Sequence record: NC_019718.1
DNA from: Enterobacteria phage vB_EcoS_Rogue1
Length of the DNA: 45,805 nt
Strand: one strand, 5' to 3'
A program made the position numbers and the translations under genes. Of this stretch, positions 1,104 to 45,739 are shown piece after piece; positions within the stretch are counted from its first letter, which is position 1, and each line of letters starts with the position of its first letter. A model generated the notes under the pieces. It saw only the letters and a program-made list of their open reading frames with translations, did no database searches and was not told the origin of the DNA.

Positions 1104-1189
1104 TGTTTGATTTCAGCGAAGATAAATTGACTGATGAGCAGATTGAGAAGCTAAAGCGGAAGAAAAAATATCTCCTGACCGGTAAATAG
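1103..1189 (+). CDS. small ORF (28 aa) whose N-terminus MFDFSEDKLTDEQ resembles that of the 530-aa protein at 41856-43448
   Basis: ATG overlaps the upstream stop (TAATG); the stop TAG is the first triplet of the palindromic box. Confidence 0.25.
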   Translation: MFDFSEDKLTDEQIEKLKRKKKYLLTGK

Positions 1190-1229
1190 CACTAATTGCT
1201 AAACAATAAATTGGGTAGTCAGCTATGAT
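1187..1229 (+). promoter_or_regulatory. palindromic box TAGCA-CTAAT-TGCTA (1187-1201), 22-bp spacer, -10-like TATGAT (1224-1229)
   Basis: Member of the repeated box family; downstream leader CAACCAAACGAGAGG precedes the ATG at 1261. Confidence 0.5.
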
Positions 1230-1754: not shown

Positions 1755-2052
1755 GAGTAAGTACGAAAAAGAGATTATTGGCCTGGACGGCACCAAGACT
1801 ACGGTTGATGTATATCGCGTCATCGCAGCATTTGGCGTAACGGACCCGGCACTACAGCATGCCATCAAAAAGGTACTGTGCAGCGGCATTCGAACACGAC
1901 ATAAGGATTACCCTACCGACATCAATGAGGCCATTGTATCGCTTCAGAAGGCCATAGAATTCCATGATCAAAGGGGCGCACATGTCCAGGAACTTATAGA
2001 CAAGTATCGCAACGGACCTAAACATTATCTTGATAGCTGGAGCAACAAATAG
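1753..2052 (+). CDS. hypothetical protein (99 aa)
   Basis: ORF with GAGG RBS supplied by the tandem duplication; stop overlaps the next palindromic box. Confidence 0.55.
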   Translation: MSKYEKEIIGLDGTKTTVDVYRVIAAFGVTDPALQHAIKKVLCSGIRTRHKDYPTDINEAIVSLQKAIEFHDQRGAHVQELIDKYRNGPKHYLDSWSNK

Positions 2053-2092
2053 CACAAATTGCTAAACATCCATCGCAAGGATGCGTTACCAT
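2050..2092 (+). promoter_or_regulatory. palindromic box TAGCA-CAAAT-TGCTA (2050-2064) plus -10-like TACCAT
   Basis: Box begins on the stop codon of the upstream gene; leader TTTATCGAAATGAGACGAGG precedes the ATG at 2125. Confidence 0.45.
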
Positions 2093-3386: not shown

Positions 3387-3462
3387 GTTCTGCTGGCGTA
3401 ACAGGATAACGCAGAGACCTCCTAAGTCTCAGTTGCTGGTTCGAGTCCAGTGCGGAACACCA
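3387..3462 (+). tRNA. tRNA-Arg, anticodon CCU (reads AGG)
   Basis: Hand-folded cloverleaf: acceptor GTTCTGC/GCGGAAC (one G-U pair), D-stem GCGT/ACGC, anticodon stem GAGAC/GTCTC, loop CTCCTAA with U33 and A37, 4-nt variable loop, T-stem GCTGG/CCAGT, T-loop TTCGAGT, discriminator A, encoded CCA; 76 nt. Confidence 0.85.
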
Positions 3463-3692: not shown

Positions 3693-3716
3693 GCCCTCCT
3701 TGTGAGGGCTTTTTTT
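3693..3716 (+). terminator. rho-independent terminator
   Basis: GCCCTC-CTTGT-GAGGGC hairpin followed by TTTTTTT. Confidence 0.7.
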
Positions 3717-3763
3717 CGTCCATAGTCATGGTACAATGACTTTTAAAACAGGAGGAATATCAA

Positions 3764-5856: not shown

Positions 5857-5879
5857 GCCCCTTACTCAGGGGCTTTTTT
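5857..5879 (+). terminator. rho-independent terminator
   Basis: GCCCCT hairpin with AGGGGC, followed by TTTTTT. Confidence 0.65.
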
Positions 5880-5893
5880 ATTGGAGAAATTAC

Positions 5894-7168
5894 ATGGTAA
5901 AAGCAGACAGCTACGCAAACATCTTTCTTAGCGGTAGTGATGGTAGTGAGGTTTACGGAAAGTTTGGCAGCCTTGGCCTAACAGATCCAGCGCAGCTTGA
6001 GCAACTTTACGTCAGCAGCGCTCTAGTTCGTCGAATTATTGATATCGTTCCAGAGGTCGCACTTGGCGCAGGCTTTAGCATTGAAGGTATCGACGACGAA
6101 GGTGCTTTCTGGTCGCGATGGGATGATTTAGGCCTTTCAGATAACGTAATCGACGCACTAGCCTGGGCGAGACTATACGGTGGCGCTGCTGTAGTGGCAA
6201 TTGTGAAGGATGGAAGGGCGCTAACCAGCCCAGCTCGTGAAGGTGCGGAGCTTGAAACGGTTCGTGTGTACGACCGGCAGCAAATTAAGGTCCAGACTCG
6301 CGAGGAGAATCCACGTAACGCGCGTTTTGGTAAGCCATTAACTTACCGCATCACACCAAACGGGTCGGCAACGTTCTACGATGTGCACTATACACGCTGT
6401 CACATCATTGATGGCGAGCGAGTACCTAACAACCTACGTCGTAATAACGATGGCTGGGGCGCAAGCGTACTAACTGGTGACTTAATTGACGCGATTGACG
6501 ACTATCAGAACTGTGAGCGACTGGCTACTCAGTTACTTCGTCGTAAACAGCAGGCGGTGTGGAAAGCAAAAGGCCTTGCTGACTTATGTGATGATTCAGA
6601 TGGATTTGGAGCAGCTCGTTTACGTCTGGCTCAGGTGGATAATAACAGTGGCGTTGGTCAGGCTATCGGGATTGACGCGGATAGTGAAGAGTACAACGTT
6701 CTCAACTCAGATATTGGCGGTATTGATACATTTCTGAGTCAGAAGTTCGATCGAATCGTTGCTCTGAGCGGTATTCATGAGATTATCCTTAAGGGTAAGA
6801 ATGTTGGTGGTGTGTCAGCAAGCCAGAACACTGCTCTAGAGACTTTCTACGGTTATGTTGACCGTAAGCGCAAGGCTGAATTATTGCCTCTGCTTGAGTT
6901 CCTGCTGCCGTTCATCGTAACCGAGCAGGAGTGGTCAGTAGAATTTAACCCTCTATCGCAGGTTAGTGACAAGGATAAATCTGAGATTCTTGAGAAGAAT
7001 GTTAACTCAGTTGCTGCATTGATTGCAGCTGGAATCATTGACGCAGACGAAGCAAGAGATACGTTGCGCGCAATTTCAACTGAGGTTAAGATTGGTGAAG
7101 GCTCAATTCAAACGGAGGTTGTAATTAATGAATCAGAAGACCCGCTGGATGTATCCGCAAATAATTGA
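5894..7168 (+). CDS. portal protein
   Basis: 424 aa; GGAG RBS; position between the terminase and head-morphogenesis genes. Confidence 0.7.
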   Translation: MVKADSYANIFLSGSDGSEVYGKFGSLGLTDPAQLEQLYVSSALVRRIIDIVPEVALGAGFSIEGIDDEGAFWSRWDDLGLSDNVIDALAWARLYGGAAVVAIVKDGRALTSPAREGAELETVRVYDRQQIKVQTREENPRNARFGKPLTYRITPNGSATFYDVHYTRCHIIDGERVPNNLRRNNDGWGASVLTGDLIDAIDDYQNCERLATQLLRRKQQAVWKAKGLADLCDDSDGFGAARLRLAQVDNNSGVGQAIGIDADSEEYNVLNSDIGGIDTFLSQKFDRIVALSGIHEIILKGKNVGGVSASQNTALETFYGYVDRKRKAELLPLLEFLLPFIVTEQEWSVEFNPLSQVSDKDKSEILEKNVNSVAALIAAGIIDADEARDTLRAISTEVKIGEGSIQTEVVINESEDPLDVSANN

Positions 7169-9470: not shown

Positions 9471-9488
9471 CTATAAACGCTTAATCAA

Positions 9489-9510
9489 ACCTCCTTCGGG
9501 AGGTTTTTTA
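9489..9510 (+). terminator. rho-independent terminator
   Basis: ACCTCC-TTCG-GGAGGT hairpin followed by TTTTTT. Confidence 0.75.
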
Positions 9511-9563
9511 TTGCTCTTTTTCTGTTAGACTGTCAATGATTATTAACCAATCAGGAGATAAAG

Positions 9564-11037: not shown

Positions 11038-11062
11038 TCCCAATCAAAATCTCGTGTATAAT
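11035..11062 (+). promoter_or_regulatory. sigma70-like promoter (TTGTCC, 16-bp spacer, TATAAT) upstream of the capsid gene
   Basis: Perfect -10 TATAAT at 11057-11062 with a 4/6 -35 hexamer. Confidence 0.4.
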
Positions 11063-11100
11063 TGACACGTAAACTCATAAACAAAAGGATGCATCTTAAT

Positions 11101-12048
11101 ATGACTATCAAACTTGACGCTTTCGAGCAAGAAAAGATTACTAACCACCTGCGAGCTATGGGCGTTGATAAGGCTGATGCGGCTGGTATCTGGACCGTGA
11201 AGCAGCTAACTGCAAGCCTGAATAAAGCTTACGAAACTGAGTACGACCAGAACTCCGTAGTAAACCTGTTCCCTGTAAGCAATGAAATTCCCGGCTATGC
11301 TAAGTACTTCGAGTATCCGGTATTTGATGGCGTTGGTATTGCTCAGATCGTAGCTGACTACACTGATGACCTGCCACTTGTTGACGCTTTAGCAACTGAA
11401 CGTCAGGGTAAAGTTTTCCGTTTTGGTAATGCTTTCTTGATTTCCATCGATGAAATTAAAGTTGGTCAAGCTACCGGTCAGTCACTATCTACTCGCAAGC
11501 AATCTCTTGCTTTCGAAGCTCACGATAAGCTGCTTGATAAACTGGTATGGTCAGGCTCTACTGCTCACGGTATCCCGAGTGTGTTCGACTATCCAAATAT
11601 CAACAACGTTGTTAGCGGTGGCTCATGGTCTCAACCAACTACAGCAGTAAGCGATATTACAAGTCTGCTGGATATTATCGAGACTTCAACCAATGGTCAG
11701 CACCGTGCAACTCACCTGCTTCTGCCTACTACCGCTCGTCGTATCATGCAGAACCTGGTTCCTGGTACCTCTGTTAGCTACGGTGAGTTCTTCCGCCAGA
11801 ACAACAGCGGAGTAACTGTTGAGTTCGTTCAGTACCTGAATGATTACAATGGCACTGGCACCTCTGCTGCTATTGCTTATGAGAAAGACCCTAACAACAT
11901 GGCCATCGAGATTCCTGAAGCGACTAACGCACTGCCAGCTCAGCCGAAGGATTTGCACTTCCGTGTTCCGGTAACTTCTAAAGCAACTGGTTTGATCGTG
12001 TTTAGGCCTTTAACGATGGCTGTAATGAAAGGCATTACTTTCGCGTAA
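11101..12048 (+). CDS. putative major capsid protein
   Basis: 315 aa (start refined to the ATG after AAAGGA RBS), flanked by strong terminators, positioned after the scaffold and before the neck genes. Confidence 0.65.
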   Translation: MTIKLDAFEQEKITNHLRAMGVDKADAAGIWTVKQLTASLNKAYETEYDQNSVVNLFPVSNEIPGYAKYFEYPVFDGVGIAQIVADYTDDLPLVDALATERQGKVFRFGNAFLISIDEIKVGQATGQSLSTRKQSLAFEAHDKLLDKLVWSGSTAHGIPSVFDYPNINNVVSGGSWSQPTTAVSDITSLLDIIETSTNGQHRATHLLLPTTARRIMQNLVPGTSVSYGEFFRQNNSGVTVEFVQYLNDYNGTGTSAAIAYEKDPNNMAIEIPEATNALPAQPKDLHFRVPVTSKATGLIVFRPLTMAVMKGITFA

Positions 12049-12063
12049 TAGCACTTTTTGATA
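12049..12063 (+). promoter_or_regulatory. palindromic box TAGCA-CTTTT-TGATA directly abutting the capsid stop, followed by a terminator hairpin
   Basis: Member of the repeated box family. Confidence 0.45.
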
Positions 12064-12069
12064 AGACAT

Positions 12070-12096
12070 AGCACCCTTCGGGGTGCTATTTTTGTT
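12070..12096 (+). terminator. rho-independent terminator
   Basis: AGCACCC-TTCG-GGGTGCT hairpin followed by ATTTTTGTTT. Confidence 0.75.
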
Positions 12097-12111
12097 TAAG
12101 GAGGAGCAAAC

Positions 12112-12597
12112 ATGAACTACAACGACTATTTCGCTTATGATGACGGAAAGATATTCTGGACTTCAAAAACAACAGATATGGCGCACAACATAAGACTTGG
12201 GGATGAGGCCGGGACTTGCAATGGTCTTGGTTACAAAAGGGTTATGTTGTTTGGTAAGCACACCATGGTTCATCACATAGTTTGGATCATGCATGGCAAT
12301 GAGATACCAAAGGGCATGGAGGTTGACCACTTGGATCATGATAGGCGCAACAACAGGATAGAGAATCTAAGGCTGGTAGACAGGGGTGTAAACATGAGGA
12401 ATAAGTCTACGTACAGGAACAGCAAGACCGGTCACCATGGAGTTACTATCAGGCCGGACAGTGGAAAGTATCGAGCTAAGATAACGATTAATAAGAAGGT
12501 TATCAACTTGGGTACTTTTGATTCAATAGATGACGCAATATCAGCCAGAAAGGATGCGGAAGTAAAGTATGGATTCCATGCCAACCACGGGGTATAA
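12112..12597 (+). CDS. HNH homing endonuclease with C-terminal AP2-like DNA-binding domain
   Basis: HNH core VDHLDHDRRNNRIENLRLV..N; C-terminal GVTIRPDSGKYRAKI...LGTFDSIDDAISARKDAEVKYGF resembles an AP2 domain; AGGAGG RBS. Confidence 0.85.
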   Translation: MNYNDYFAYDDGKIFWTSKTTDMAHNIRLGDEAGTCNGLGYKRVMLFGKHTMVHHIVWIMHGNEIPKGMEVDHLDHDRRNNRIENLRLVDRGVNMRNKSTYRNSKTGHHGVTIRPDSGKYRAKITINKKVINLGTFDSIDDAISARKDAEVKYGFHANHGV

Positions 12598-14505: not shown

Positions 14506-15156
14506 ATGGCCCATCTCAGCAATGGCACACAAATTTTTTTGCAAGGCTCTAAATCTGAATCGGTAGCCGTAACGGCTATCACTAACGCAGCTCAGCCAGT
14601 TATGACGGTAGCTGACGCTTCAACTTTCGCAGCTGGTGACTTCATTGTTGTTGAGTCATCTTCATGGTCTAAACTTTCAGAGAAACAGTTGCGAGTAGTT
14701 ACATCAACGGCTACAACAATTACCGTTGAAGGCATTGACACTACTGACCCGCTTCAGTTCCCAGCTGGCGGAACGGCATCGATCTACAAGGTTCTTACCT
14801 GGTATGAAATGCCTTGTGTTCAAGACGTTTCAACTGATGGCGGAGAGCAGCAGTTCGTTACTTATCAGTGCCTGGCTGATGACCGTGAGCAGCAGATTCC
14901 AACCTATAAGTCAGCGGTAAACACGACCTATACGTTTGCTCACGAGTTCACCAACCCGATCTACCCGGTACTCCGTAACTACGACGAGTCTGGCGCGCTG
15001 ATTGCGATTCGTGCATACGTTCCTAAAGCTGGCGAAGTTCGACTTTGGACTGGCACTATCGCGTTTAACGAAACTCCAAACGTTTCCGTTAACGAGATCG
15101 AAACTGTATCCGTAGCAATTACGGTACGTGGACGCTATAGCTTCCTGGCTGCATAA
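14506..15156 (+). CDS. putative major tail tube protein
   Basis: 216 aa; followed by a strong terminator; upstream of the chaperone pair and tape measure. Confidence 0.6.
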   Translation: MAHLSNGTQIFLQGSKSESVAVTAITNAAQPVMTVADASTFAAGDFIVVESSSWSKLSEKQLRVVTSTATTITVEGIDTTDPLQFPAGGTASIYKVLTWYEMPCVQDVSTDGGEQQFVTYQCLADDREQQIPTYKSAVNTTYTFAHEFTNPIYPVLRNYDESGALIAIRAYVPKAGEVRLWTGTIAFNETPNVSVNEIETVSVAITVRGRYSFLAA

Positions 15157-15162
15157 CAATCA

Positions 15163-15187
15163 AGCCCCTTCACAGGGGCTTTTTTTA
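15163..15187 (+). terminator. rho-independent terminator
   Basis: AGCCCCT-TCACA-AGGGGCT hairpin followed by TTTTTTT. Confidence 0.75.
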
Positions 15188-15229
15188 TGTTATAATTTCA
15201 ACTCAAACAAACACGAGAGGATTATTTAA

Positions 15230-15544: not shown

Positions 15545-15861
15545 AGCGCGCAGTATATCTACAGTATCAAAGAGAGCCAACGGACGCCGAACTTGAAGCT
15601 ATTGGAATGCGGCGTTCCGATTACGAAGATGAGGATCCAGAGGAGTTACACTTCGATGATGACATGATGCTGGCATGGACTATTTATCAGGCGACCTCAA
15701 CTCAATGGCGTGTAGGTATGAACGGCGCTACCGGAATAGATTATTCAGTACTCCCTTTCCTCTTTGATGTGTATAATGTCAAGGACAAAGAGATGACTTT
15801 AAATGACTTGCGAATACTAGAGTGCAAAGCACTTGAGATGATGCAAGTAAGGCAAAAATAA
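15502..15861 (+). CDS. -1 frame extension of the tail assembly chaperone (GT-like frameshift product); downstream ORF lacks its own RBS
   Basis: The -1 frame is open from 15502 (after TAA at 15499-15501) through the chaperone stop (15542-15544) to 15861; the ATG at 15607 has no RBS. Confidence 0.4.
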   Translation, partial: CLHASSGGPARKGLKRAVYLQYQREPTDAELEAIGMRRSDYEDEDPEELHFDDDMMLAWTIYQATSTQWRVGMNGATGIDYSVLPFLFDVYNVKDKEMTLNDLRILECKALEMMQVRQK

Positions 15862-15862
15862 C

Positions 15863-15884
15863 CTCCCTTTGTGGAGGTTTTTTT
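15863..15884 (+). terminator. hairpin plus T-run (attenuator-like) immediately before the tape measure start
   Basis: CCTCC-CTTTGTG-GGAGG followed by TTTTTTT; the tape-measure RBS GGAGG lies just downstream. Confidence 0.45.
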
Positions 15885-15895
15885 ATGGAGGTTAC

Positions 15896-34429: not shown

Positions 34430-36373
34430 ATGGAAAACCGATTGAAAACAATACAAAAACAGATTGAAGAATTGGGCGAAGATAAGATTAAAGAGATTCA
34501 AACTAAATTCACCTCTTCTAACGGTATGGTTCCGTATAGCTATCAGTGTGTTATGTACAATGAGATTGCAAAGCGCATTAGTCGCTATGAGCATCCATTT
34601 ATCGCAATGGCTTCAGTTTCTGCTGGTAAGACTCTGGTTTTTGGTATGGTTGCTAAGCGTTGCTCTGAGCTTGGCTTGCCTATGCTTGTTCTTGCTCGTC
34701 AGGCAGAGCTGGTTAGCCAGAATGCTTCTGAGATTTCTGATTACGGGGTTCCTAACTCCATTTATTGCTCTGGGCTTGGAATAAAATCATCTTATTTCCC
34801 TGTGGTGGTTGGCTCTGAGGGCACAGTAGTTGGCGGGCTTAAGAAGTCACTTGGCGATTTCTGTCCTGCGGTAGTTGCTATTGATGAGTGTCACCATATT
34901 GATGACCAGGACATAGCGGAGGCAATTGATAACAATGAGACTGCGCAACAGGCATCAGATAAGGGGCGTAGCCAGTATACGGTCATCATCCTGACTTTAA
35001 TGGAGCGCTGCCGTGCTAAGTATGGCAAGAATCTTCGTATCTTTGGACTGACTGGTTCTCCTTTCCGTGGAACTACGCCAATAGTTGTTGAAAACAAAAA
35101 GGAGTTGGGATTTTGGCGTGAGACGGTCACAAATATCGATACAAACTACCTGGTCGAGTTCGGTTCCGTGGTTCCGACAAACTTTGGTGCTACTGATGGC
35201 GTTGGTTACGACCTCTCAGAGTTTGATGCATCATCTGAAGATGGTGTTCAGGATTACACTAAAGCCCAGCTTGAAGCCATGGATAAAAAGATTCAGGCAT
35301 CTGGAACAATGACAGCGGAGATAATGAAGAAAGTATGGCTTGCCGCGAAAAACAGGAATGGAGTTCTGGTAACATGCGCAGGTGAGCGCCATTGCCACGA
35401 AGCCGCAAGTTACCTTCCTGAAGGTGAAAAGTTCTGCATTATAACTGGAAAGACTGGCGAGAAGCAGCGCAAGGAGTTGCTTGATAAGTGCTTTAGCGGG
35501 GAGATTAAATATTGCTTTCAGGTTCAGGCGCTAACCACTGGCGTAAATGTGCCTACATGGGATACAAGCGTTATTCTGCGTAAGATTGGTAGCCTTACGC
35601 TCCTGGTTCAGCTACTTGGTCGAGGAATGCGTAAGCTTAAGAAGCTCCATGAAGATAAAGGAATGGTCAAGAATGACCATTTGGTACTGGACTTCGCAGG
35701 AACGATGGACTCTATGGCATCATTGTACTTCAATCCAATTCTTGAGCAGGCTCAATATCAGCTACGAAAGAGTAATGGCAAGGAGACTAAGCAGTGTCCA
35801 GTATGCGGAACAGAGAACAGCTTCTTTGCTCGACGTTGCATGCATATTGATGAGAATAATAATCGCTGCGAATATTTCTGGGTTAGTCGCACATGTGAAG
35901 ACCAGAAAGACCCACGAACCGGAAAGGTTATCGTTAAAGGCTGCGGAGTTCAGAATGACGTTGCAGCTAAGATTTGTAGGGGTTGCGATTGCACTTTGCT
36001 TGATCCAAATCTCAACTTAAGCGGCAAACATTACCGCAAGAACGACTGGTTTGATGTTGTTGACTTTAAGGTTGGGCTAACAAAGAACCAATCAGGAATC
36101 ATCTACAACTACATCCTTGATGATGGCATGGGTGGGACATTCAAAGCTCATGAGGTTTTCTTTGTAGAGTCTGACCATCGAGTATGTAAAACGCTCTGGT
36201 TGAACAATGGAATTAAAGGTCACGTAGTCGACATGAACGCTAAGCGATATATGGCTGCATATCGCAATGCTCGCAAGATTATGGAGTATGCGCAGTACAT
36301 CCATGCCCCTAAGAGGGTAACTCACCGCAAGACCGCTAAAGGTGGCGATAATATTGCTAATAAGGAGTTCTAA
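34430..36373 (+). CDS. superfamily-2 DNA helicase with C-terminal zinc ribbon
   Basis: Walker A SAGKTLV, DECHH box, QLLGRGMR arginine-finger motif, C-terminal CPVCG...C..C; start refined to the ATG at 34430. Confidence 0.75.
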   Translation: MENRLKTIQKQIEELGEDKIKEIQTKFTSSNGMVPYSYQCVMYNEIAKRISRYEHPFIAMASVSAGKTLVFGMVAKRCSELGLPMLVLARQAELVSQNASEISDYGVPNSIYCSGLGIKSSYFPVVVGSEGTVVGGLKKSLGDFCPAVVAIDECHHIDDQDIAEAIDNNETAQQASDKGRSQYTVIILTLMERCRAKYGKNLRIFGLTGSPFRGTTPIVVENKKELGFWRETVTNIDTNYLVEFGSVVPTNFGATDGVGYDLSEFDASSEDGVQDYTKAQLEAMDKKIQASGTMTAEIMKKVWLAAKNRNGVLVTCAGERHCHEAASYLPEGEKFCIITGKTGEKQRKELLDKCFSGEIKYCFQVQALTTGVNVPTWDTSVILRKIGSLTLLVQLLGRGMRKLKKLHEDKGMVKNDHLVLDFAGTMDSMASLYFNPILEQAQYQLRKSNGKETKQCPVCGTENSFFARRCMHIDENNNRCEYFWVSRTCEDQKDPRTGKVIVKGCGVQNDVAAKICRGCDCTLLDPNLNLSGKHYRKNDWFDVVDFKVGLTKNQSGIIYNYILDDGMGGTFKAHEVFFVESDHRVCKTLWLNNGIKGHVVDMNAKRYMAAYRNARKIMEYAQYIHAPKRVTHRKTAKGGDNIANKEF

Positions 36374-36762
36374 TGGTTAAGGTTTTTCACGACAAAACAA
36401 GCACGGACAAGGCTAAAGAGGTTGTTCACCAAATAAATTCAATAGCTTGGGTTCGCCACAACCATCCAGAGATATTTGCTTTTCACGTGAAGAATGAAGG
36501 TCTCAAGTCTATCGGCACAGCAATGAAGGACAAGCAGGAGGGAGTAATTAAGGGTGTATCAGATATTCTACTGATTGGACCAAATGGCTTTGCCGCAATA
36601 GAGCTTAAGCGAGCAATAAAATCAGATAGCAAGGTTTCAAAGGAGCAAAAGGAGTTCCTGGAAAAGGTATCAGAAACAGGAGGTTACGCGGCAATCTGTT
36701 ATGGGTTTGAAATGTTTAAGTTGGCAATTACAGATTATCTATCAAATAGCACGAATTGCTAA
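36373..36762 (+). CDS. VRR-NUC domain nuclease
   Basis: 129 aa with D-x(n)-IELK core (ISDILLIGPNGFAAIELKRA) typical of VRR-NUC/PD-(D/E)XK minimal nucleases. Confidence 0.6.
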   Translation: MVKVFHDKTSTDKAKEVVHQINSIAWVRHNHPEIFAFHVKNEGLKSIGTAMKDKQEGVIKGVSDILLIGPNGFAAIELKRAIKSDSKVSKEQKEFLEKVSETGGYAAICYGFEMFKLAITDYLSNSTNC

Positions 36763-36789
36763 AGAGATTTCGCAAGGATGCGATATAGT
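36747..36789 (+). promoter_or_regulatory. palindromic box TAGCA-CGAAT-TGCTA, 22-bp spacer, -10 TATAGT (36784-36789), leader CATCGAAACGAAGAGAGAGA
   Basis: Box overlaps the last codons of the VRR-NUC gene. Confidence 0.55.
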
Positions 36790-37431: not shown

Positions 37432-37474
37432 TAGCACTTTTTGTTAAAACTAAAATACAAGGATGGATTATATT
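37432..37474 (+). promoter_or_regulatory. palindromic box TAGCA-CTTTT-TGTTA, 22-bp spacer, -10 TATATT
   Basis: Box family member; leader with GAGAGGG RBS precedes the ATG at 37505. Confidence 0.5.
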
Positions 37475-37866: not shown

Positions 37867-38120
37867 ATTTACCTGGTCTAGATTTTGATGAGAGTAAGTA
37901 TCAGGTTGTGTTTTTTGGTGAGAAGCCTTATCGGAAGATTCCTTTCTCTGAGTGGATTCCTCCGGACTACCTCGATGTACTGGTGCAAATTGAGATTGGT
38001 AAAGCTGAGTTGATGTACTATTCGCCAGGTTGCAATATGATGATGCCTAGTGAGTATTCACCAGCAATTTCTTCTCTAGAAACTGAGTTTCTTGATTACT
38101 GGCTAAAAGAAGTAAAATAG
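37863..38120 (+). CDS. hypothetical protein (85 aa)
   Basis: Coupled ORF (ATGA overlap); stop overlaps the next palindromic box. Confidence 0.5.
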   Translation: MNLPGLDFDESKYQVVFFGEKPYRKIPFSEWIPPDYLDVLVQIEIGKAELMYYSPGCNMMMPSEYSPAISSLETEFLDYWLKEVK

Positions 38121-38160
38121 CACTTTTTGTTAAAACACATCGCCATGGATGGCGTATAGT
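38118..38160 (+). promoter_or_regulatory. palindromic box TAGCA-CTTTT-TGTTA, 22-bp spacer, -10 TATAGT (38155-38160), leader CATCGAAACGAGAGA
   Basis: Box family member; a 22-codon hydrophobic mini-ORF (38188-38256) lies in the leader before the phosphoesterase gene. Confidence 0.55.
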
Positions 38161-38271: not shown

Positions 38272-39405
38272 ATGGCTATAGCTAAAATCACCAACGAAGA
38301 GTTAAAGCAAGAACTGGCTAACGGTATGACTAACAAGGCAATCGCAGAGAAGTACGGTATGAATATTCGTAACGTAGAGCTGCGTCGCAGCAAGTTGGCT
38401 AAGGCTGGGGATGGTCACGGTCGCGATGTGAGTAACCTAATTCCTCAGGGCTACATGGTTAAAGGTGTATCTAGCCTTGTTGATAATGATGGCAATGTGA
38501 AGTTGCAATGGGTTAAGTCCTCTATTGATGCAGAGAAGCTTGAGGAGATGATGAATCAAGCGCGAGAGGCATTCTCTAGCGAGCTACCAAAAGAAAAAGC
38601 AGTTAAATCTGAAGGTCTGAATTTTGATGAAGATACTTTAGCTATGTATCCAGTATTTGACCTTCACATTGGCGCAATGGCCCACAAGCATGAGTGCGGA
38701 GAAAACTACGACACAGCAACGGCAGAGAAAGTAATGAACGATTATTTTGACTACGCCGTACAGAAATCTCCAAATTCAAAGAATGCTGTACTAGTGCTAG
38801 GAGGTGATCTGCTTCATTATGATTCTTTGGAAGCCAAAACTCCAGCCAGTGGTCACATCCTGGACAGTGACAGTCGCTACGCCAAGATTGTTTATGTTTG
38901 CATTCGAGCGGTTCGCCGCGCAATTCGAAACATGCTTAGCAAACATGAAAACGTAGAGGTTAAAGTTATATCTGGTAATCATGATGAAAGTGGTATGGTT
39001 TGGTTGCGGGCTGCGCTTGCTGCATTTTATGAGGAAGAGCCACGCGTTAGTATTGATGTTAGTCCCGCGGCAATGATGGTAACTAAGTTTGGTTCTACAA
39101 TGCTTGGTTTCACTCACGGGCATCAAATGCGTAAAGCTGATACTCGCCTTTCGGTTATGGCTACTGACTGGCGACGTGACTTTGGTTTAAGTGATTATGT
39201 ATACACCCACTCAGGCCACTGGCATTCACAGAAGATTACAGAGACAAATCTTGGTATTGATGAGGTTCATGGTCAGCTTGGTTCACCAGATGCATATAGT
39301 GCGAATGGTGGATGGCGCTCACAAAGGCAGGCCGCGGTAATCATCTATCATAAAGAGTTTGGTGAGGTTGGTCGCTTTATCTGCCGTCCAGAAATGTTCA
39401 AATAA
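38272..39405 (+). CDS. calcineurin-like metallophosphoesterase with N-terminal HTH-like region
   Basis: Motifs FDLHIG (D-x-H), GGDLLHYD (GD-x-x-D), GNHDE and GHWH in canonical order; N-terminal LKQELANGMTNKAIAEKYGMNIRNVELRR resembles an HTH. Confidence 0.7.
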   Translation: MAIAKITNEELKQELANGMTNKAIAEKYGMNIRNVELRRSKLAKAGDGHGRDVSNLIPQGYMVKGVSSLVDNDGNVKLQWVKSSIDAEKLEEMMNQAREAFSSELPKEKAVKSEGLNFDEDTLAMYPVFDLHIGAMAHKHECGENYDTATAEKVMNDYFDYAVQKSPNSKNAVLVLGGDLLHYDSLEAKTPASGHILDSDSRYAKIVYVCIRAVRRAIRNMLSKHENVEVKVISGNHDESGMVWLRAALAAFYEEEPRVSIDVSPAAMMVTKFGSTMLGFTHGHQMRKADTRLSVMATDWRRDFGLSDYVYTHSGHWHSQKITETNLGIDEVHGQLGSPDAYSANGGWRSQRQAAVIIYHKEFGEVGRFICRPEMFK

Positions 39406-39420
39406 TATCACTTTTTGTTA
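39406..39420 (+). promoter_or_regulatory. degenerate palindromic box TATCA-CTTTT-TGTTA followed by a GC hairpin
   Basis: Abuts the phosphoesterase stop; downstream -10 unclear. Confidence 0.3.
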
Positions 39421-39470
39421 AAGCCCTTCGAGGCTTTTGAGATGCGTCAGCTACAGATATAGGAATCAAA

Positions 39471-39668
39471 ATGATTACAGAGATGATTTTAGTTGCAAGC
39501 CTTTCATCTCCATTGGTATCTCAACAGTATTGTGAACTTGGAAAAGAGATTTACCATGAAGGAGTGGAATTAAGAACGGTTGTTGATTGGCTTAATCACA
39601 GCACGATGAATATTGATGATAAAAAGATTGTCCTTGAGTGCTATATAGTGGAGTCAAATAAAGTCTAA
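39471..39668 (+). CDS. hypothetical protein (65 aa)
   Basis: ATG after AGGAA RBS. Confidence 0.45.
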   Translation: MITEMILVASLSSPLVSQQYCELGKEIYHEGVELRTVVDWLNHSTMNIDDKKIVLECYIVESNKV

Positions 39669-39711
39669 ATAGCACGAATTGCTAAAACGAAAATCAAAAG
39701 ATGGGGTATAG
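39669..39711 (+). promoter_or_regulatory. palindromic box TAGCA-CGAAT-TGCTA, 22-bp spacer, -10 TATAGT embedded in inverted repeat GATGGGG/CCCCATC
   Basis: Box centre is about 42 bp upstream of the predicted transcription start. Confidence 0.55.
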
Positions 39712-39744
39712 TTACCCCATCTAAACAAACGAGAGGATACAAAG

Positions 39745-39930: not shown

Positions 39931-40118
39931 TGCTTCAAACAATTAAAGCCGACATGGTTAAGGTGGGTGATGAAGTTTTGTTCTTAAACTGCCCACCGCA
40001 GGTAGTTAAGGCTACAAGCCTTGAGTATTACCCTGGCTGTATTTTCGTAATGATTAAGACCATTGGTGGTAACTGCTTCCCAATTAATGTAAACACACTT
40101 ATTTGCGTAAACCGTTAA
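39930..40118 (+). CDS. hypothetical protein (62 aa)
   Basis: Coupled ORF (TAATG overlap). Confidence 0.45.
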   Translation: MLQTIKADMVKVGDEVLFLNCPPQVVKATSLEYYPGCIFVMIKTIGGNCFPINVNTLICVNR

Positions 40119-40130
40119 GAGATTATCAAA

Positions 40131-40304
40131 ATGACTAAATTATTCTGCGTTAGCAACAAATCAAAATCACTGCCTTTCACTGTAAACAACCCTTACAGTG
40201 GTGAGTACCAGGGGGATGGTAATTATAAGATTTATGGCGATGACATGACTTGGATCTTCGCTCCCATTGATGGAGAACTGGTGGAATTCATTATCGCAGA
40301 CTAA
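40131..40304 (+). CDS. hypothetical protein (57 aa)
   Basis: ORF below the track cutoff, found by manual translation; followed by a terminator. Confidence 0.35.
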   Translation: MTKLFCVSNKSKSLPFTVNNPYSGEYQGDGNYKIYGDDMTWIFAPIDGELVEFIIAD

Positions 40305-40331
40305 CTTATAAGAAACATCAACTTGCAAACA

Positions 40332-40356
40332 GGCGGCCTTTATGGCTGCCTTTTTT
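40332..40356 (+). terminator. rho-independent terminator
   Basis: GGCGGCC-TTTAT-GGCTGCC hairpin (one G-U pair) followed by TTTTTT. Confidence 0.6.
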
Positions 40357-40418
40357 CTTTTATGTCAAAGTTTAATATCTGGTATTATTTAATCAAATCA
40401 ACTTAAAGAGGCCGCAAC

Positions 40419-41855: not shown

Positions 41856-43448
41856 TTACCCCAGCAGCCGTGGATTGATATATACCTTGTCACCAATCAG
41901 GCAGGTATAGTTTTTATCATCAAGCATCGGGAGTAAGTGGTCTTTAATTTTAGCCATAACACCAGCCTGTGACTCGAAAGGTCGAACCTTACGCGCAGCT
42001 TCATAAAGTGAACGCAAACCCACAACTCCTTTACTGTTCTTGCCTTGCTTGATAAGGATATCAATTAACTTGTTCATCTCAGCGTTATCGCCAGCATGAC
42101 CAGCTGCGTTAGCTGAGGATAAGTAAGTCTTACTAAGTTCTCCAAACATCAACAAAGCCTCTTGCATGGTTTCCAGTTCAATCTCCCTGGACTTCTGCGG
42201 ACTACCGCCATTGGGGTTAAACCAGTTACGGATAGTGTGAAGAACGGCAGCAAGGCGAATTACCTGTTTATCCATTTTACCTAACGCGCCGCGCAGCATT
42301 GTGTGTGAATACTTACCGCCATCTGCAAGGTGTGGCTCCATTTCCTGTCGAGCACGGTTAAGGTGCTTCATTGCTGAGTTACTAATAGTCAACTTCACAT
42401 CTTGCTCACTCATAATTTCATGAACAAGACGGAAGTAATCAGCCTTCAACGATCCGTCAATCGGCTCATATGTTGACTCGCCATTATCATCGACGAAAAC
42501 ACGCTCACCAAGGAATGACTTTTCACGCACAAGCAAGAAACGTTCGGATACACCAATACCGCGAGCACCAGCATTCATGATTGCGACTATTGTTTCATCC
42601 TGCGCAATTACAGAAATACACCCCAGAGCAATAAAGCTCATGTTGTTCTCTGCGTTCGCACGCGCGATAGATACGTTACCAGCATCCCAGGCCTTAAGTA
42701 CCAGTTCGCTGTTTGTTTTCTTTGTTCCATCACCATAGGTCATGCCCAGCAGTGAGTTGACGCTCGTCGCCTCATCCGAGATGACAGCGAAGCTACCCTG
42801 ACGATGGTTAATGCGTGCCAGACCTTCAGGAGTAGTATCAGATACAGGGAATACGATGTCGCAAAGTTTCTCGAGCTTATCTTCCAGCTCCTCCTTCTCC
42901 TCAAACAAACCAGCCATCTCAGAAGGCGACTTCTCCTGCTTCATTTCTTTAGCCAGAGCCGACAGCTTGGCCATGATCTTTTTACGGTCACGCTTACGCA
43001 GATCGTTTAGTCGCTCAGTCTCTGCAATCATTGGAGCCAGAGACAGCGAGTTAATGGCAGATTTACCAGTTGATGGAGGCTGGCTGGTCACTACATACAG
43101 TGATGTTGGTTGTTGAGTTCCGTGATACTCAACCGTAAAGCGACCCAACATAGCTGCCGAGATGCAACCAAGGAAGTGCATATAAGCAGATGATTCAGGA
43201 AACTGAACAGAACGAGCAATGTTGCTTGATAGTTTGCCAACTACATCATAGTCGTTACCAAGCGAGATAACAGGATACTTGTCGCCAGTAGAATCAATCT
43301 CAACCGGAGCTTTCCAGAATGATGCGCTCTGGCGATAACCGTTCGCATTAATAGCAACACGTAAAGGAGGTAATCCATCCTGAGCGGCAATAGTCATTAC
43401 TTGTTCAACAGTCAATTTGTCATCATTAAAATCAAACATTATTATCAT
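41856..43448 (-). CDS. hypothetical protein (530 aa) with P-loop-like motif PPSTGKS
   Basis: Long ORF; Walker A-like SQPPSTGKSAINS about 120 aa from the N-terminus; function not recognised. Confidence 0.55.
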   Translation of the reverse strand: MIIMFDFNDDKLTVEQVMTIAAQDGLPPLRVAINANGYRQSASFWKAPVEIDSTGDKYPVISLGNDYDVVGKLSSNIARSVQFPESSAYMHFLGCISAAMLGRFTVEYHGTQQPTSLYVVTSQPPSTGKSAINSLSLAPMIAETERLNDLRKRDRKKIMAKLSALAKEMKQEKSPSEMAGLFEEKEELEDKLEKLCDIVFPVSDTTPEGLARINHRQGSFAVISDEATSVNSLLGMTYGDGTKKTNSELVLKAWDAGNVSIARANAENNMSFIALGCISVIAQDETIVAIMNAGARGIGVSERFLLVREKSFLGERVFVDDNGESTYEPIDGSLKADYFRLVHEIMSEQDVKLTISNSAMKHLNRARQEMEPHLADGGKYSHTMLRGALGKMDKQVIRLAAVLHTIRNWFNPNGGSPQKSREIELETMQEALLMFGELSKTYLSSANAAGHAGDNAEMNKLIDILIKQGKNSKGVVGLRSLYEAARKVRPFESQAGVMAKIKDHLLPMLDDKNYTCLIGDKVYINPRLLG

Positions 43449-43700: not shown

Positions 43701-43744
43701 AATATATCAATTTTTGTTGTTAAGTTCTTTAGCAAAAAGTGCTA
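43701..43744 (-). promoter_or_regulatory. palindromic box (43730-43744) plus -10 TATATT (complement of 43701-43706) and leader CATCGAAACGAAA
   Basis: Box family member in minus orientation. Confidence 0.5.
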
Positions 43745-43861
43745 TTAAAGACCAACCAGACATTTGCCAACTACAACAGCGATTGCGCCCATGAAGCCAA
43801 AGAAACCAAACTTAATTACTTGTTCCATTACCGCATCAACTGCTTTAGAGATGTTTTTCAT
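43745..43861 (-). CDS. small membrane peptide (38 aa; TMD FGFFGFMGAIAVVVG)
   Basis: Start refined to the internal ATG with AAGGTGA RBS; the longer track ORF starts inside the promoter box. Confidence 0.4.
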   Translation of the reverse strand: MKNISKAVDAVMEQVIKFGFFGFMGAIAVVVGKCLVGL

Positions 43862-43898
43862 TTTGTTCACCTTAGTTTTTGTCTTCTTGATGGAAACA

Positions 43899-43942
43899 AA
43901 TATACCCGCCGAAGCGGGTACTGTCATTAGCAAAAAGTGCTA
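43899..43942 (-). promoter_or_regulatory. palindromic box (43928-43942), terminator hairpin (43903-43920) in the spacer, -10 TATATT
   Basis: Composite terminator/promoter unit; hairpin TACCCGC-TTCG-GCGGGTA followed by a T-rich run on the minus strand. Confidence 0.5.
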
Positions 43943-44149
43943 TTTTTTTAAGTGCCCTGGCGCATAGCATTTTCCATCCTTCTTATGCAAAACCCACCCA
44001 GCATATTTAAGTTGCCTTGCACAATCAGAAAAGTTCTCGCCCGCAGCGTCCGTATAGTGTGGCATAAAATAAGAACCATCATCATTTGACTCAGTTGAGC
44101 ACTTCTTACAGTCGCAATAAACAGCGATGGAATAACCTGAAACAATCAT
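43940..44149 (-). CDS. hypothetical Cys-rich protein (69 aa)
   Basis: ORF with CDCKKC...C...C pattern; coupled to the upstream ORF. Confidence 0.45.
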   Translation of the reverse strand: MIVSGYSIAVYCDCKKCSTESNDDGSYFMPHYTDAAGENFSDCARQLKYAGWVLHKKDGKCYAPGHLKK

Positions 44150-44499
44150 TTGTAAGCCGCCTCAAACTTATACATCCCATAACCCACATCAAAGCCAACT
44201 TCTTCATCACGCGTCAACTGCCAGCCCTCGCCGTCTTCATCATAAATATACCCAGCGTTACGACCAAGTGATGCAGTCATTGATACCTGGTAACGCTTAC
44301 CCTTACTGAAACTCTTCTTGAGTGGTGACTTGTGGTTCACGAAAGTGCAAAGCAAAGTCTTTGTCTTGACGTAACGACCCCGGCCAGTGAGATTTTGCCA
44401 TTTACCATGAATCTTGATTTGCTCAATACCATCTTTAACGCGAGCTTTAAACAGATTGTTATCTGAGCTGATCCAGTTTTTAGTGATAGTGGTAGCCAT
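44146..44499 (-). CDS. hypothetical protein (117 aa)
   Basis: ORF with RBS on the minus strand. Confidence 0.5.
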   Translation of the reverse strand: MATTITKNWISSDNNLFKARVKDGIEQIKIHGKWQNLTGRGRYVKTKTLLCTFVNHKSPLKKSFSKGKRYQVSMTASLGRNAGYIYDEDGEGWQLTRDEEVGFDVGYGMYKFEAAYK

Positions 44500-44524: not shown

Positions 44525-44827
44525 TTAGTTAGCGTTATGACGTTCGATATAGTCGCGGATTGTTTCGCCTACGCTTTTAGCGGCACCAAAAGTGCCCTTT
44601 GCGTGGCGTGAATCGCGGTACGTCTGGAAGAATTTACGAGCGATGTTTGCGAACATTGAACCAGTCACGCGAGCATCACCGAAATTTGTTTCGATAGCGT
44701 TGCTAATGCCATCCTTGAACTCATTTTCAGTCATGAACATCTCTGCCATGCCAGCAGTCTCGAAAAGGTTAGCTAATTCATTCATGTTGTTATGGTCTTC
44801 GGCTGTAAACAGGTTCATGTTAATCAT
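44525..44827 (-). CDS. hypothetical protein (100 aa)
   Basis: ORF following a box-type promoter and conserved leader. Confidence 0.5.
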   Translation of the reverse strand: MINMNLFTAEDHNNMNELANLFETAGMAEMFMTENEFKDGISNAIETNFGDARVTGSMFANIARKFFQTYRDSRHAKGTFGAAKSVGETIRDYIERHNAN

Positions 44828-44861
44828 CTTCGTGATTCCTTAGTTTCGTTTCGATGAGATG

Positions 44862-44903
44862 AATATACAATAAAAGCCCCGAAGGGCTTTAGCAATTCGT
44901 GCT
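44862..44903 (-). promoter_or_regulatory. palindromic box (44889-44903, TAGCA-ATTCG-TGCTA), terminator hairpin (44875-44888) in the spacer, -10 TATATT, leader CATCGAAACGAAAC
   Basis: Composite terminator/promoter unit in minus orientation. Confidence 0.5.
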
Positions 44904-45054
44904 ATTTCTTTGCTGCTTTTGCAATTGCCTTCTGGACGATGTTGAAGCTCTCAATCAAATCTTCTTTGAAGTAGTCACCAACAGGCCAACCCTTACCGCT
45001 GTACTTTGCTATAGTTTCTAGATCGTAATAGTTCAAATCAGATGGTTTAAGCAT

Positions 45055-45695: not shown

Positions 45696-45739
45696 ACTAT
45701 AGCCTTGCCATCCCCATTTGTCTTTAGCAAAAAGTGCTA
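45696..45739 (-). promoter_or_regulatory. palindromic box (45725-45739) plus -10 TATAGT (complement of 45696-45701)
   Basis: Box family member in minus orientation with 23-bp spacer. Confidence 0.5.

Follow-up and report, generated by a model that had tools for sequence, protein, structure and literature searches.

Predicted terminator hairpins within direct-repeat promoters of the T1-like phage vB_EcoS_Rogue1

Several gene junctions in Enterobacteria phage vB_EcoS_Rogue1 (record NC_019718.1; the whole stretch of 45,805 nucleotides that was analyzed is referred to as the window) fold a predicted transcription terminator into the predicted promoter of the next gene. An earlier note on this DNA, made from its letters alone, had described a stop codon followed by a palindromic box, a GC hairpin with a TTCG/CGAA loop, a T-rich run doubling as the -10 element, and a conserved leader. 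Four such units were examined: 43942-43899 on the minus strand (unit 1), 44904-44862 on the minus strand (unit 2), 12049-12097 on the plus strand (unit 3), and 39406-39437 on the plus strand (unit 4). Units of this kind are probably bifunctional stop-and-restart junctions between co-directional T1-like transcription units. Units 1-3 are predicted intrinsic terminators, only a few bases would separate the ends of their transcripts from the next predicted start, and their box is recognizable by sequence as the direct repeat (DR) aaATAGCACnnnTTGnTAAAA of the T1 family.

By nucleotide identity, the window is from a Rogunavirus, a T1-like siphovirus of the Drexlerviridae. Its last 2.8 kb is 99.6% identical to Escherichia phage vB_EcoS-UDF157lw and 96-98% identical to AHS24, AHP24, AHP42, AKS96, C119, phiKP26, and JK06, all members of Rogunavirus. 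According to the annotations of relatives and the TLS paper (PMC11447400), these T1-like phages encode no RNA polymerase or sigma factor gene, and their transcription by the host enzyme is expected.

Overlap of predicted terminator and promoter in the examined units

Read on its own strand, unit 1 runs cac tta aaa aaa TAG-CACTTTTTGCTA ATGACA GTACCCGC-ttcg-GCGGGTAT ATTTGTTTCC ATCAAGAAGA and continues through AAGG to an ATG. The stop codon of the upstream open reading frame (ORF; 43940..44149), TAG at 43942-43940, is the opening triplet of the box, and the predicted start falls at about 43892-43891. A consensus scan picked up this stretch twice, as a sigma-70-like site (ATGACA-17-TATATT, 43927 to 43899, 10/12 matches) and, from 43921 to 43902, as a terminator-like stem of 8 pairs closed by a 4-nt loop. 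The order in unit 2, also on the minus strand, is aag aaa TAG-CACGAATTGCTA-AAGCCC-ttcg-GGGCTTT TATTG TATATT catctc ATCGAAACGAAAC, then AAGGA and ATG. Here the TAG (44904-44902) that ends ORF 44902..45054 falls inside the box, and the predicted start is the A at 44855; behind it come the leader catctcATCGAAACGAAAC / ATCGAAACGAAAC, then a Shine-Dalgarno sequence, and finally the ATG at 44827. Unit 3 follows the major capsid gene (11062..12048, with its TAA at 12046-12048) and reads TAA TAGCACTTTTTGATA agac ATAGCACCC-ttcg-GGGTGCTAT TTTTGTTT AAGGAGG agcaaac ATG, so that the Shine-Dalgarno sequence comes directly after TTTTGTTT.

RNA folds of the units were compared with 200 dinucleotide shuffles each. 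Units 1, 2, and 3 gave -18.7 kcal/mol (z = -3.89; 0/200 shuffles as good), -13.2 kcal/mol (z = -2.66; 1/200), and -23.8 kcal/mol (z = -5.58; 0/200), respectively, whereas the fold of unit 4 was no better than its shuffles (z = 0.06; 95/200 as good). Unit 4 also fails the U-tract criterion of the terminator scan (tail UGAGAUGC) and has no -10 at the right distance from its box, while 22/24 of its first positions from TTG onward are identical to those of unit 2. Because of this match, together with its degenerate box, mismatched stem, and missing -10, unit 4 is best read as a decayed and displaced copy of the unit 2 cassette. The element order that the earlier note proposed for all four sites therefore stands at units 1-3 and breaks down at 39406, and the conserved leader is found at both minus-strand sites but at neither unit 3 nor unit 4.

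Units 1-3 form a terminator subset because their stems end at or just before the hexamer and the next 8 nt are U-rich. The stems, which occupy the 22-23 nt between box and -10, have 8, 7, and 9 pairs, of which 4-5 are GC, and are closed by UUCG loops; 6-7 U lie within the 8 nt after each stem. The tails, AUUUGUUUCC in unit 1, UAUUGUAUAU in unit 2 (with UUU in the stem base), and UUUUGUUUAA in unit 3, all reach the 5 T per 8 nt that the scan requires as a minimum behind the stem. The three units are as good in stem length and tail as undisputed terminators of the window, such as those at 15162, 21729, 25196, 30071, and 40331. Published annotations of relatives point the same way. In the GenBank record of AHS24, the unit 1 orthologue carries a terminator at 40162-40188 that overlaps a promoter of the TTGACA-N17-TATAAT type at 40167-40195 on the same strand. 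The orthologous hairpins of AHS24 and AHP42 were called by TransTermHP and/or WebGeSTer, with a TransTermHP terminator at the unit 2 site of AHP42, and three annotated terminators of T1 (38973-39001, 39998-40024, and 41980-42007) fall within DR promoters. The central claim of the earlier note, a terminator hairpin lying between an upstream promoter element and the -10, with its T-rich tail on the -10 itself and a new transcript beginning just behind it, is supported by the sequence, by the comparison with relatives, and by predictions published independently.

Relatives were first collected through a 117-amino acid (aa) neighboring protein, which yielded 5 loci only, and a DNA-pattern scan for the box was used for a larger sample. 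Both minus-strand hairpins are intact in relatives in which the neighboring protein is 74-78% identical and the flanking genes differ. The sequence of the unit 1 cassette is kept even though the DNA upstream of it takes five forms and the downstream gene is either a small hydrophobic ORF or a helicase. A nearly identical stem (GTACCCGC/GCGGGTAT, here with a GAAA loop) is present in a non-orthologous DR promoter of T1. Breakpoints of BLAST alignments with relatives fall in DR intervals more often than their length predicts (6.1% of endpoints in 2.0% of the sequence, about 3-fold), a figure that is uncorrected for the general bias of breakpoints toward intergenic DNA.

The direct-repeat promoter family and its hairpins

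The palindromic box of the earlier note is real, but the note had not recognized it as a direct repeat already known from the T1 family, which recurs at about 15 promoters of the window. The repeat aaATAGCACnnnTTGnTAAAA was described in the 2024 re-annotation of phage TLS (PMC11447400), in which 21 copies lie about 76 nt upstream of start codons; it was also noted in T1, Rtp, and Rogue1. Its function was left open, with a stoperator, an enhancer site, and an UP element offered as possibilities. At up to 2 mismatches there are 24 copies in T1, 22 in TLS, and 20 in Rtp, and the boxes of units 1-3 match the repeat with 0-1 mismatches, beginning 81, 77, and 63 nt before their respective ATG codons. 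The pattern TAGCA-N5-TGCTA (up to 1 mismatch) occurs 16 times in the window, compared with 2.4 +/- 1.5 expected, and no shuffle reached 16. One copy (32293, CAGCAGAGCTTGCTA) is an intragenic chance match. The other 15/16 are aligned with the local direction of transcription and point at the downstream gene, and most copies in the window overlap or abut the upstream stop codon.

The box sits at a fixed distance from a -10-like hexamer. Among the 73 box sites with up to 1 mismatch in T1, TLS, Rtp, and the window (the reference set), 66 have a strong TAnnnT hexamer downstream; 54 of these hexamers are 22 nt from the box, 7 are 23 nt away, 4 are 21 nt away, and a single one is 25 nt away. An enlarged set was assembled by adding IMG/VR T1-like contigs found with the box DNA pattern. 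In this set, 280 of the 356 unique sites have such a hexamer 21-23 nt after the box, and the distance is exactly 22 nt in 239/356. The gap-free column consensus of these 239 sites is aAATAGCACgaaTTGCTAAAac, 16 variable nt, GgTATAaT, nacc n, and CA tcgAAAc, after which the Shine-Dalgarno sequence follows. On the resulting promoter map, the hexamer spans -12 to -7, the conserved dinucleotide is C(-1)A(+1), and the box extends from -49 to -35 with its dyad at -42. Because the hexamer lies at a fixed distance and is followed by the CA start and the leader tcgAAAc, the DR box is, as judged from this geometry, an upstream element of a promoter, centered at about -42. A TTGACA-type -35 is absent from the family consensus, which has TAAAac at that place. 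The TTGCTA of the box was tried as a -35 and rejected, as the spacer would be 22-23 nt.

An alternative is that the hairpins are ordinary terminators and that the box is a repressor or silencer site of the stoperator kind, or a site for some other DNA transaction, with no re-initiation at the junction. The stoperator and enhancer proposals made for TLS (PMC11447400), where UP elements were equally considered, leave space for this idea, as does the lack of a -35 in units 2 and 3. It does not account for the TAnnnT hexamer at a fixed 22 nt in 239/356 sites with CA, leader, and Shine-Dalgarno sequence at fixed distances behind it, nor for boxes that always point toward the downstream gene. Moreover, there are few consensus sigma-70 promoters otherwise: scans of the window gave no excess of such sites over shuffles, and TLS has just three (PMC11447400). 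We regard this alternative as quite unlikely.

The layout of the DR promoters is suggestive of activator dependence. Class II activator-dependent promoters are bound by CRP or FNR at -41.5, and lambda cI binds at -42 of PRM. Like the promoters described here, they combine a two-fold symmetric site (15 bp in the DR box) near -42 with a weak or absent -35 and a good -10. By this analogy, the good -10, sometimes preceded by a G at -14, the poor -35, and the symmetric site at -42 would make up a class II activator layout, with an UP-like role as the alternative. A comparison with the MotA boxes of T4 was rejected, because these are centered at -30 rather than -42. There are two leads to a protein that might read the box. 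The first is the conserved Cro/YdaS-like helix-turn-helix protein encoded at 33864..34337; T1, TLS, and Rtp carry an annotated transcriptional regulator at the corresponding position. The second is host Lrp, a candidate suggested by site similarity. The E. coli Lrp consensus is yAGhAwATTwTdCTr (PMC5554404), and the DR box has the same half-sites at the same spacing, with 13/15 positions matching in the TTT group (TAGCAC-TTT-TTGCTA, for example at 43928-43942) and 11-12/15 in the GAA and A-rich variants.

Hairpins in the core promoter are the rule in the DR promoter family and not an oddity of three sites. When the 36 nt that separate the box from the predicted start were folded, 54% of 65 reference promoters reached -10 kcal/mol or lower, compared with 4.8% of random 36-mers from the same genomes, and z relative to shuffles averaged -2.26 (p about 5e-16, t-test). 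Among the 280 unique promoters, a stem-loop encloses the -10 in 130 (with arms such as GGGGTAA/TTACCCC, AAGGCCA/TGGCCTT, and AGGGGAA/TTCCCCT), the 3' arm runs into the -10 in 17, and the hairpin lies wholly in the gap, abutting the -10, in 62. The hairpin is absent or weak in the remaining 71/280, so that about 75% carry a sense-strand RNA hairpin in the core promoter. In a fixed register, pairing gap positions 11-17 with the stretch from the last T of the hexamer through -1, at least 6/7 pairs form in 28.5% of promoters versus 9.1 +/- 1.4% after column shuffling, and the 31 different arm pairs involved amount to covariation.

The signal is specific to one strand. In 182 cases the better fold is that of the sense strand, compared with 49 in which it is that of the complement (p = 2.5e-22), sense-strand G-U pairs are in excess, and tetraloops occur in the sense orientation (UUCG in 13 cases, GAAA in 10, and other GNRA/UNCG types) and never as their complements. 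Hairpins are also missing where no transcription arrives from upstream: 9/10 arm-opening promoters, which have no co-directional gene upstream, lack one, compared with 13/55 others (Fisher p = 1.2e-4; classified by hand). An automatic version based on upstream co-directional ORFs, in which tiny upstream genes are misclassified, showed a weak effect, with strong folds in 81% versus 59% (p = 0.024), and the classification by hand was used in its place. Taken together, the folding excess, the covariation, the sense-strand bias, and the hairpin-free arm-opening promoters say that the hairpins act in the RNA reading into the promoter from upstream and not in the promoter DNA.

These results bear on three further explanations. 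That short GC palindromes happen to lie beside T-rich, -10-like sequence in AT-rich intergenic DNA is an idea to which the shuffle-level fold of unit 4 and the shuffle-level frequency of promoter-like consensus matches in the window lend some color. Given the fold scores of units 1-3, the family-wide statistics, and the conservation in diverged relatives, this coincidence has been rejected and its probability is negligible. A second explanation is that the inverted repeats act in DNA as extruded hairpins or cruciforms, as in the hairpin promoters of the phage N4 virion RNA polymerase. The hairpins do lie inside the core promoter, the commonest class has the -10 hexamer in the loop, and some sites have GCGAAAGC-type loops, which also form stable DNA mini-hairpins. 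Nevertheless, the strong strand asymmetry and the sense-strand G-U excess speak against such structures, and it is on the asymmetry that the cruciform model was rejected. UUCG loops stabilize RNA and not DNA. Hairpins are not placed uniformly with respect to the -10, and they are missing from a quarter of the promoters as well as from those without upstream co-directional transcription. In addition, no phage RNA polymerase is encoded. An action in DNA is therefore very improbable.

The third explanation is that the hairpins work mainly after transcription, as 3'-end protection or as processing landmarks, and thereby determine how stable the upstream mRNA segment is. It would suit the 130/280 hairpins that enclose the -10 and the 57/280 that abut it without a T-rich tail, which nonetheless show sense-strand selection at the RNA level. 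Units 1-3, on the other hand, have U-rich tails and pass the terminator scan, and their counterparts in related phages were called by TransTermHP and WebGeSTer. We think it unlikely that this is the main role, although a post-transcriptional role and a terminator role are not exclusive. A broader alternative is that the DR-box promoters of Drexlerviridae constitute a distinct activator-dependent class, read by the Cro-like protein or Lrp, with a built-in RNA hairpin and with stopping or processing of incoming transcripts brought about through the promoter or the polymerase bound to it and not through a canonical intrinsic terminator. Units 1-3 would then be merely the subset that also carries a U tract, the commonest form being the one that encloses the -10 without such a tract. 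We regard this account as unlikely.

Several observations weigh against units 1-3 as stop-and-restart junctions of the kind proposed. A recognizable -35 is present in unit 1 only, with nothing better than TAAAGC or TAAGAC in units 2 and 3, so that promoter activity of the latter two would depend on the DR box. Unit 3 has a weak -10 (TATTTT at 12087-12092) and no conserved leader, and its start codon is 63 nt away instead of the usual ~76; what remains of its promoter may be vestigial, leaving a terminator alone. The two minus-strand hairpins are simply conserved and vary little in a compensatory way. Most hairpins of the family, namely those of the classes that enclose or abut the -10, have no U tract behind them, so an intrinsic terminator cannot be the whole explanation for these hairpins. 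Finally, no 5' or 3' transcript ends for any T1-like phage were found in the searchable literature, and the terminator and promoter activities are for this reason predictions; the genome papers of SU57 and KanT1 held nothing further on these elements.

Other features of the window and of related genomes

The positions of all features are collected in Table 1. The other DR promoters of the window include forms with a small spacer hairpin, forms in which the hairpin encloses the -10, and forms with no strong hairpin. The sole match in an Rfam scan of the whole window was the tRNA at 3387-3459. A Pfam scan of the small genes beside the units (43940..44149, 44146..44499, 44525..44827, and 39471..39668) returned no families, and gene function therefore offers no clue as to why these junctions would be insulated.

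Table 1. Coordinates of the predicted elements of units 1-4, the genes behind them, and other predicted promoters and composites in the window.
Feature	Coordinates	Strand	Basis or remark
Unit 1 DR box TAGCACTTTTTGCTA	43928..43942	-	sequence reading and pattern scan
Unit 1 -35-like hexamer ATGACA	43922..43927	-	17 nt upstream of TATATT; promoter annotated in AHS24 and AHP42
Unit 1 predicted terminator hairpin GTACCCGC-TTCG-GCGGGTAT (RNA: GTACCCGC-UUCG-GCGGGUAU, then AUUUGUUUCC)	43902..43921	-	scan and fold
Unit 1 -10 hexamer TATATT	43899..43904	-	overlaps stem base and U-rich tail
Gene served by unit 1: 38-aa hydrophobic ORF (MKNISKAV...)	43745..43861	-	TAA directly before next DR box (43744)
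Unit 2 DR box TAGCACGAATTGCTA	44890..44904	-	sequence reading and pattern scan
Unit 2 predicted terminator hairpin AAAGCCC-TTCG-GGGCTTT, tail TTTTATTG (RNA UAUUGUAUAU)	44873..44890	-	scan and fold
Unit 2 -10 hexamer TATATT	44862..44867	-	22 nt from box
Unit 3 DR box TAGCACTTTTTGATA, 1 mismatch	12049..12063	+	directly after TAA of major capsid gene
Unit 3 predicted terminator hairpin ATAGCACCC-TTCG-GGGTGCTAT (RNA AUAGCACCC-UUCG-GGGUGCUAU, then UUUUGUUU)	12068..12089	+	scan and fold
Gene served by unit 3: HNH homing-type endonuclease	12112..12597	+	absent here in UDF157lw
Unit 4: degenerate box TATCACTTTTTGTTA (TATCAC...TTGTTA), mismatched stem AAAGCC-cttcga-GGCTTT	39406..39437	+	decayed copy
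DR promoter, box to -10 TATGAT	1187..1229	+	pattern and hexamer
DR promoter, box to -10 TACCAT, small spacer hairpin CGCA-agga-TGCG	2050..2092	+	pattern and hexamer
DR promoter, box to -10 TACAAT	19333..19375	+	pattern and hexamer
DR promoter, divergent region, no strong hairpin	26469..26512	-	pattern and hexamer
DR promoter, hairpin encloses -10 (GGGGTAtagtTACCTC)	28871..28913	+	pattern and hexamer
DR promoter, divergent region between Cro-like regulator and helicase genes, no strong hairpin	34351..34392	+	pattern and hexamer
DR promoter, small spacer hairpin TCGCA-agga-TGCGA	36747..36789	+	pattern and hexamer
DR promoter	37432..37474	+	pattern and hexamer
DR promoter, spacer hairpin CGCCA-tgga-TGGCG	38118..38160	+	pattern and hexamer
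DR promoter, hairpin encloses -10 (GATGGGGTAtagtTACCCCATC; GATGGGGTA-tagt-TACCCCATC)	39670..39712	+	fold, -20.9 kcal/mol, z -7.6
DR promoter without hairpin, directly after small ORF served by unit 1	43701..43744	-	pattern and hexamer
First DR promoter of leftward right-arm genes, no strong hairpin	45696..45739	-	pattern and hexamer
DR-less composite after major tail protein gene: AAGCCCC-ttca-CAGGGGCTT + T7, then TGtTATAAT	15162..15196	+	z -4.19

The small spacer hairpins with AGGA or TGGA loops (2050-2092, 36747-36789, and 38118-38160 in the window; 4028, 8426, 44965, and 38479 in Rtp) show compensatory changes in their arms and, at about -5 kcal/mol, are too weak to be terminators. The commonest DR form (28871-28925 and 39670-39725 in the window, and also in T1, TLS, Rtp, and IMG/VR contigs) is an inverted repeat around the -10 whose arms covary between promoters.

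The DR promoter at 34351..34392 affects a gene annotation. In coordinates equivalent to those of UDF157lw, the helicase ORF is annotated from 34379. The -10 ends at 34392, which puts the predicted transcript start behind this ATG, and on the predicted promoter position translation more likely begins at the in-frame ATG at 34430. In late structural regions of relatives, minus-strand DR boxes lie antisense at 15085 and 18849 in T1 and at 15041 in TLS, with no counterpart in the window. The -10 is reasonable at T1 18849 and weaker at the other two sites, and these boxes may be antisense promoters.

The 38-aa ORF behind unit 1 lies between the DR promoters at 43942 and 43744 and is absent in two relatives (L009 and L010), in which the unit 1 cassette directly precedes the helicase gene. 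From this comparison, the ORF is identified as an apparent ORFan-type insertion bounded by repeated promoters. At the unit 3 position, the capsid gene of UDF157lw is followed by a different terminator without a box, and there is no HNH gene there. HNH endonuclease genes of T1 (~41957-42510), Rtp (6317-6864 and 21394-21979), and TLS (48194-47608, minus strand) each lie behind their own DR promoter, and free-standing homing endonuclease genes for this reason seem to travel with, or land behind, DR cassettes.

Two further peculiarities of unit 3 concern its hairpin. The terminator arms ATAGCACCC and GGGTGCTAT (12068-12089) contain the DR half-sites TAGCAC and GTGCTA, and the hairpin looks like a DR palindrome with a widened center. 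In a readthrough transcript (12054-12105, plus strand), CUUUUUGA of the box is predicted to pair with UUAAGGAG, which would lengthen the terminator stem; this pairing is weak and includes three G-U pairs. Speculatively, it would hide the HNH Shine-Dalgarno sequence in readthrough RNA, whereas this sequence would stay accessible in RNA initiated at the DR promoter.

Terminators also lie close to predicted promoters in the window without a DR box. At 15162-15196, a -35-like TTCACA sits in the hairpin loop, and the promoter has an 11/12 match and an extended -10. Four more strong terminators are followed by an extended -10: 3693-3740 (plus; TGgTACAAT), 9487-9535 (plus; TGtTAGACT), 40331-40385 (plus; TGgTATTAT), and 32882-32835 (minus; TGaTACAAT). 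The distance from terminator to extended -10 is ~20 nt in three of these and ~27 nt at 40331, and the four sites may be further DR-less coupled terminator-promoter pairs. A different arrangement is seen at 5857-5896, 15860-15898, and 19619-19657 (all plus), where strong terminators of the late region run with their T tract directly into the next Shine-Dalgarno sequence and ATG. Since this leaves no room for a promoter, the genes behind them must rely on readthrough, and these predicted terminators would act as attenuators inside an operon.

Proposed mechanism and relation to known systems

Under the stop-and-restart reading, which we consider probable, polymerase arriving from the upstream gene would transcribe the box, then the GC-rich UUCG stem, and then the U-rich -10 region, as the sequence and its conservation suggest, and most upstream transcripts would have their 3' ends near positions -5 to -1 of the promoter that follows. 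The same DNA would serve as a host sigma-70 promoter of the T1-family type, with TATAaT, often a G at -14, and the box 22 (21-23) nt upstream, where it could be used at ~-42 by a class II-like activator or as an UP-like element. From the shared geometry, initiation is predicted at the A of the conserved CA, 7 nt after the hexamer. As the new transcript starts downstream of the hairpin, the terminator would act on incoming transcription only. The outcome would be an insulator: expression of each small gene block would be set by its own promoter and not by the sum of those upstream. No intergenic space would be spent on it, the upstream stop codon even lying inside the box. The leftward right arm would be divided into three such blocks. 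The first begins at promoter 45739 and ends at terminator 44873, and the second begins at promoter 44904 and ends at terminator 43902. The third begins at promoter 43942, takes in promoter 43744 and the helicase gene, and ends at terminator 41512.

The earlier note further suggested that readthrough versus re-initiation is regulated. No regulator or alternative structure for such a choice was identified in the sequence of the units, and the idea finds no direct support beyond an analogy with bacterial promoter-coupled terminators. By the same analogy, polymerase at the promoter may raise the efficiency of termination.

If both halves work as predicted, T1-like genomes would be chains of short insulated units in which each stop is folded into the next promoter. 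This would explain how all genes are expressed from a 46-kb genome that has almost no consensus promoters but ~18-21 predicted terminators, as counted in published annotations of related phages, and it would give a function to the conserved 21-nt repeat left open in 2024. At ~60 bp, the units are natural and diverse in sequence, and could provide test cases for promoter-terminator coupling as well as compact insulator parts.

The closest phage counterpart is the PeSL cassette of the T4-like phages RB49, phi1, PST, and nt-1 (Arbiol et al. 2010, PMC2839356; Comeau et al. 2014, PMC4122927). PeSL cassettes and DR units share the same sequence of parts: the stop codon of the preceding gene, an element of the promoter's upstream side, a stem-loop that most often lies between -35 and -10 or over the -10, a Shine-Dalgarno sequence, and the start of a small gene. 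Both are short conserved intergenic units that occur in many copies per genome, concentrated among small accessory genes; both persist while flanking genes differ, and the role proposed for both is to halt accumulated upstream transcription and restart it. They differ in that PeSL cassettes belong to T4-like myoviruses instead of Drexlerviridae siphoviruses, with no sequence relationship between them. The upstream element of PeSL is an AT-rich tract joined to a consensus TTGACA/TATAAT early promoter, whereas the DR unit has a GC-containing palindromic box at -42 and a weak or absent -35, and DR units are also found in the late/structural region. In addition, PeSL activities were measured, the stem-loops between -35 and -10 terminating as well as rrnB T1 and the promoters being very strong (PMC2839356, PMC4122927), while those of the DR units are predicted from sequence. 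Going by layout, DR units would work like PeSL but are outside the PeSL sequence family, and the PeSL analogy suggests that they might likewise mediate recombination of flanking genes.

A second counterpart is found in bacteria, where promoter-coupled terminators have been reported to be widespread and were tested in vitro and in vivo (Fletcher, ... Grainger, bioRxiv 2026, 10.64898/2026.08.19.745784). In vitro, readthrough fell by 25-58% when the promoter overlapping the terminator was active, an effect that needed proximity (10.64898/2026.08.19.745784). As in the DR units, the two functions share DNA, with the stem-loop over the -35 and spacer region and the T tract at or just upstream of the -10, and transcript end and start lie within a few to ~10 bp of each other. 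The arrangement is enriched between tandem genes and saves intergenic space. With an end at most 35 bp upstream of a same-strand start as the definition, the DR units qualify on their predicted positions, their stems ending at -13 to -10. They differ in a shorter predicted end-to-start distance (about 1-8 nt), in the extra conserved box, and in having sites that are predicted only. The DR-less composite at 15162-15196 fits the bacterial motif almost exactly. The earlier note's view of the units as unusually compact is not supported: theirs is the commonest PeSL layout in T4-like phages, it is widespread in bacteria, and a hairpin is present in about three quarters of DR promoters.

The repeat itself agrees with its description in TLS (PMC11447400) in consensus, in the three groups of central triplet (TTT, GAA, and A-rich), in orientation, and in distance to the start codon. 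The fixed 22-nt distance from box to -10, the CA start, and the hairpins between box and start are not part of that description and are added by the present analysis. The architecture is already known from T4-like phages and from bacteria, and the general concept is unchanged by our findings; what appears to be new in the searchable literature is the fixed geometry of box and hexamer, the prevalence of hairpins in these promoters, and the hairpins that enclose the -10 without a U tract.

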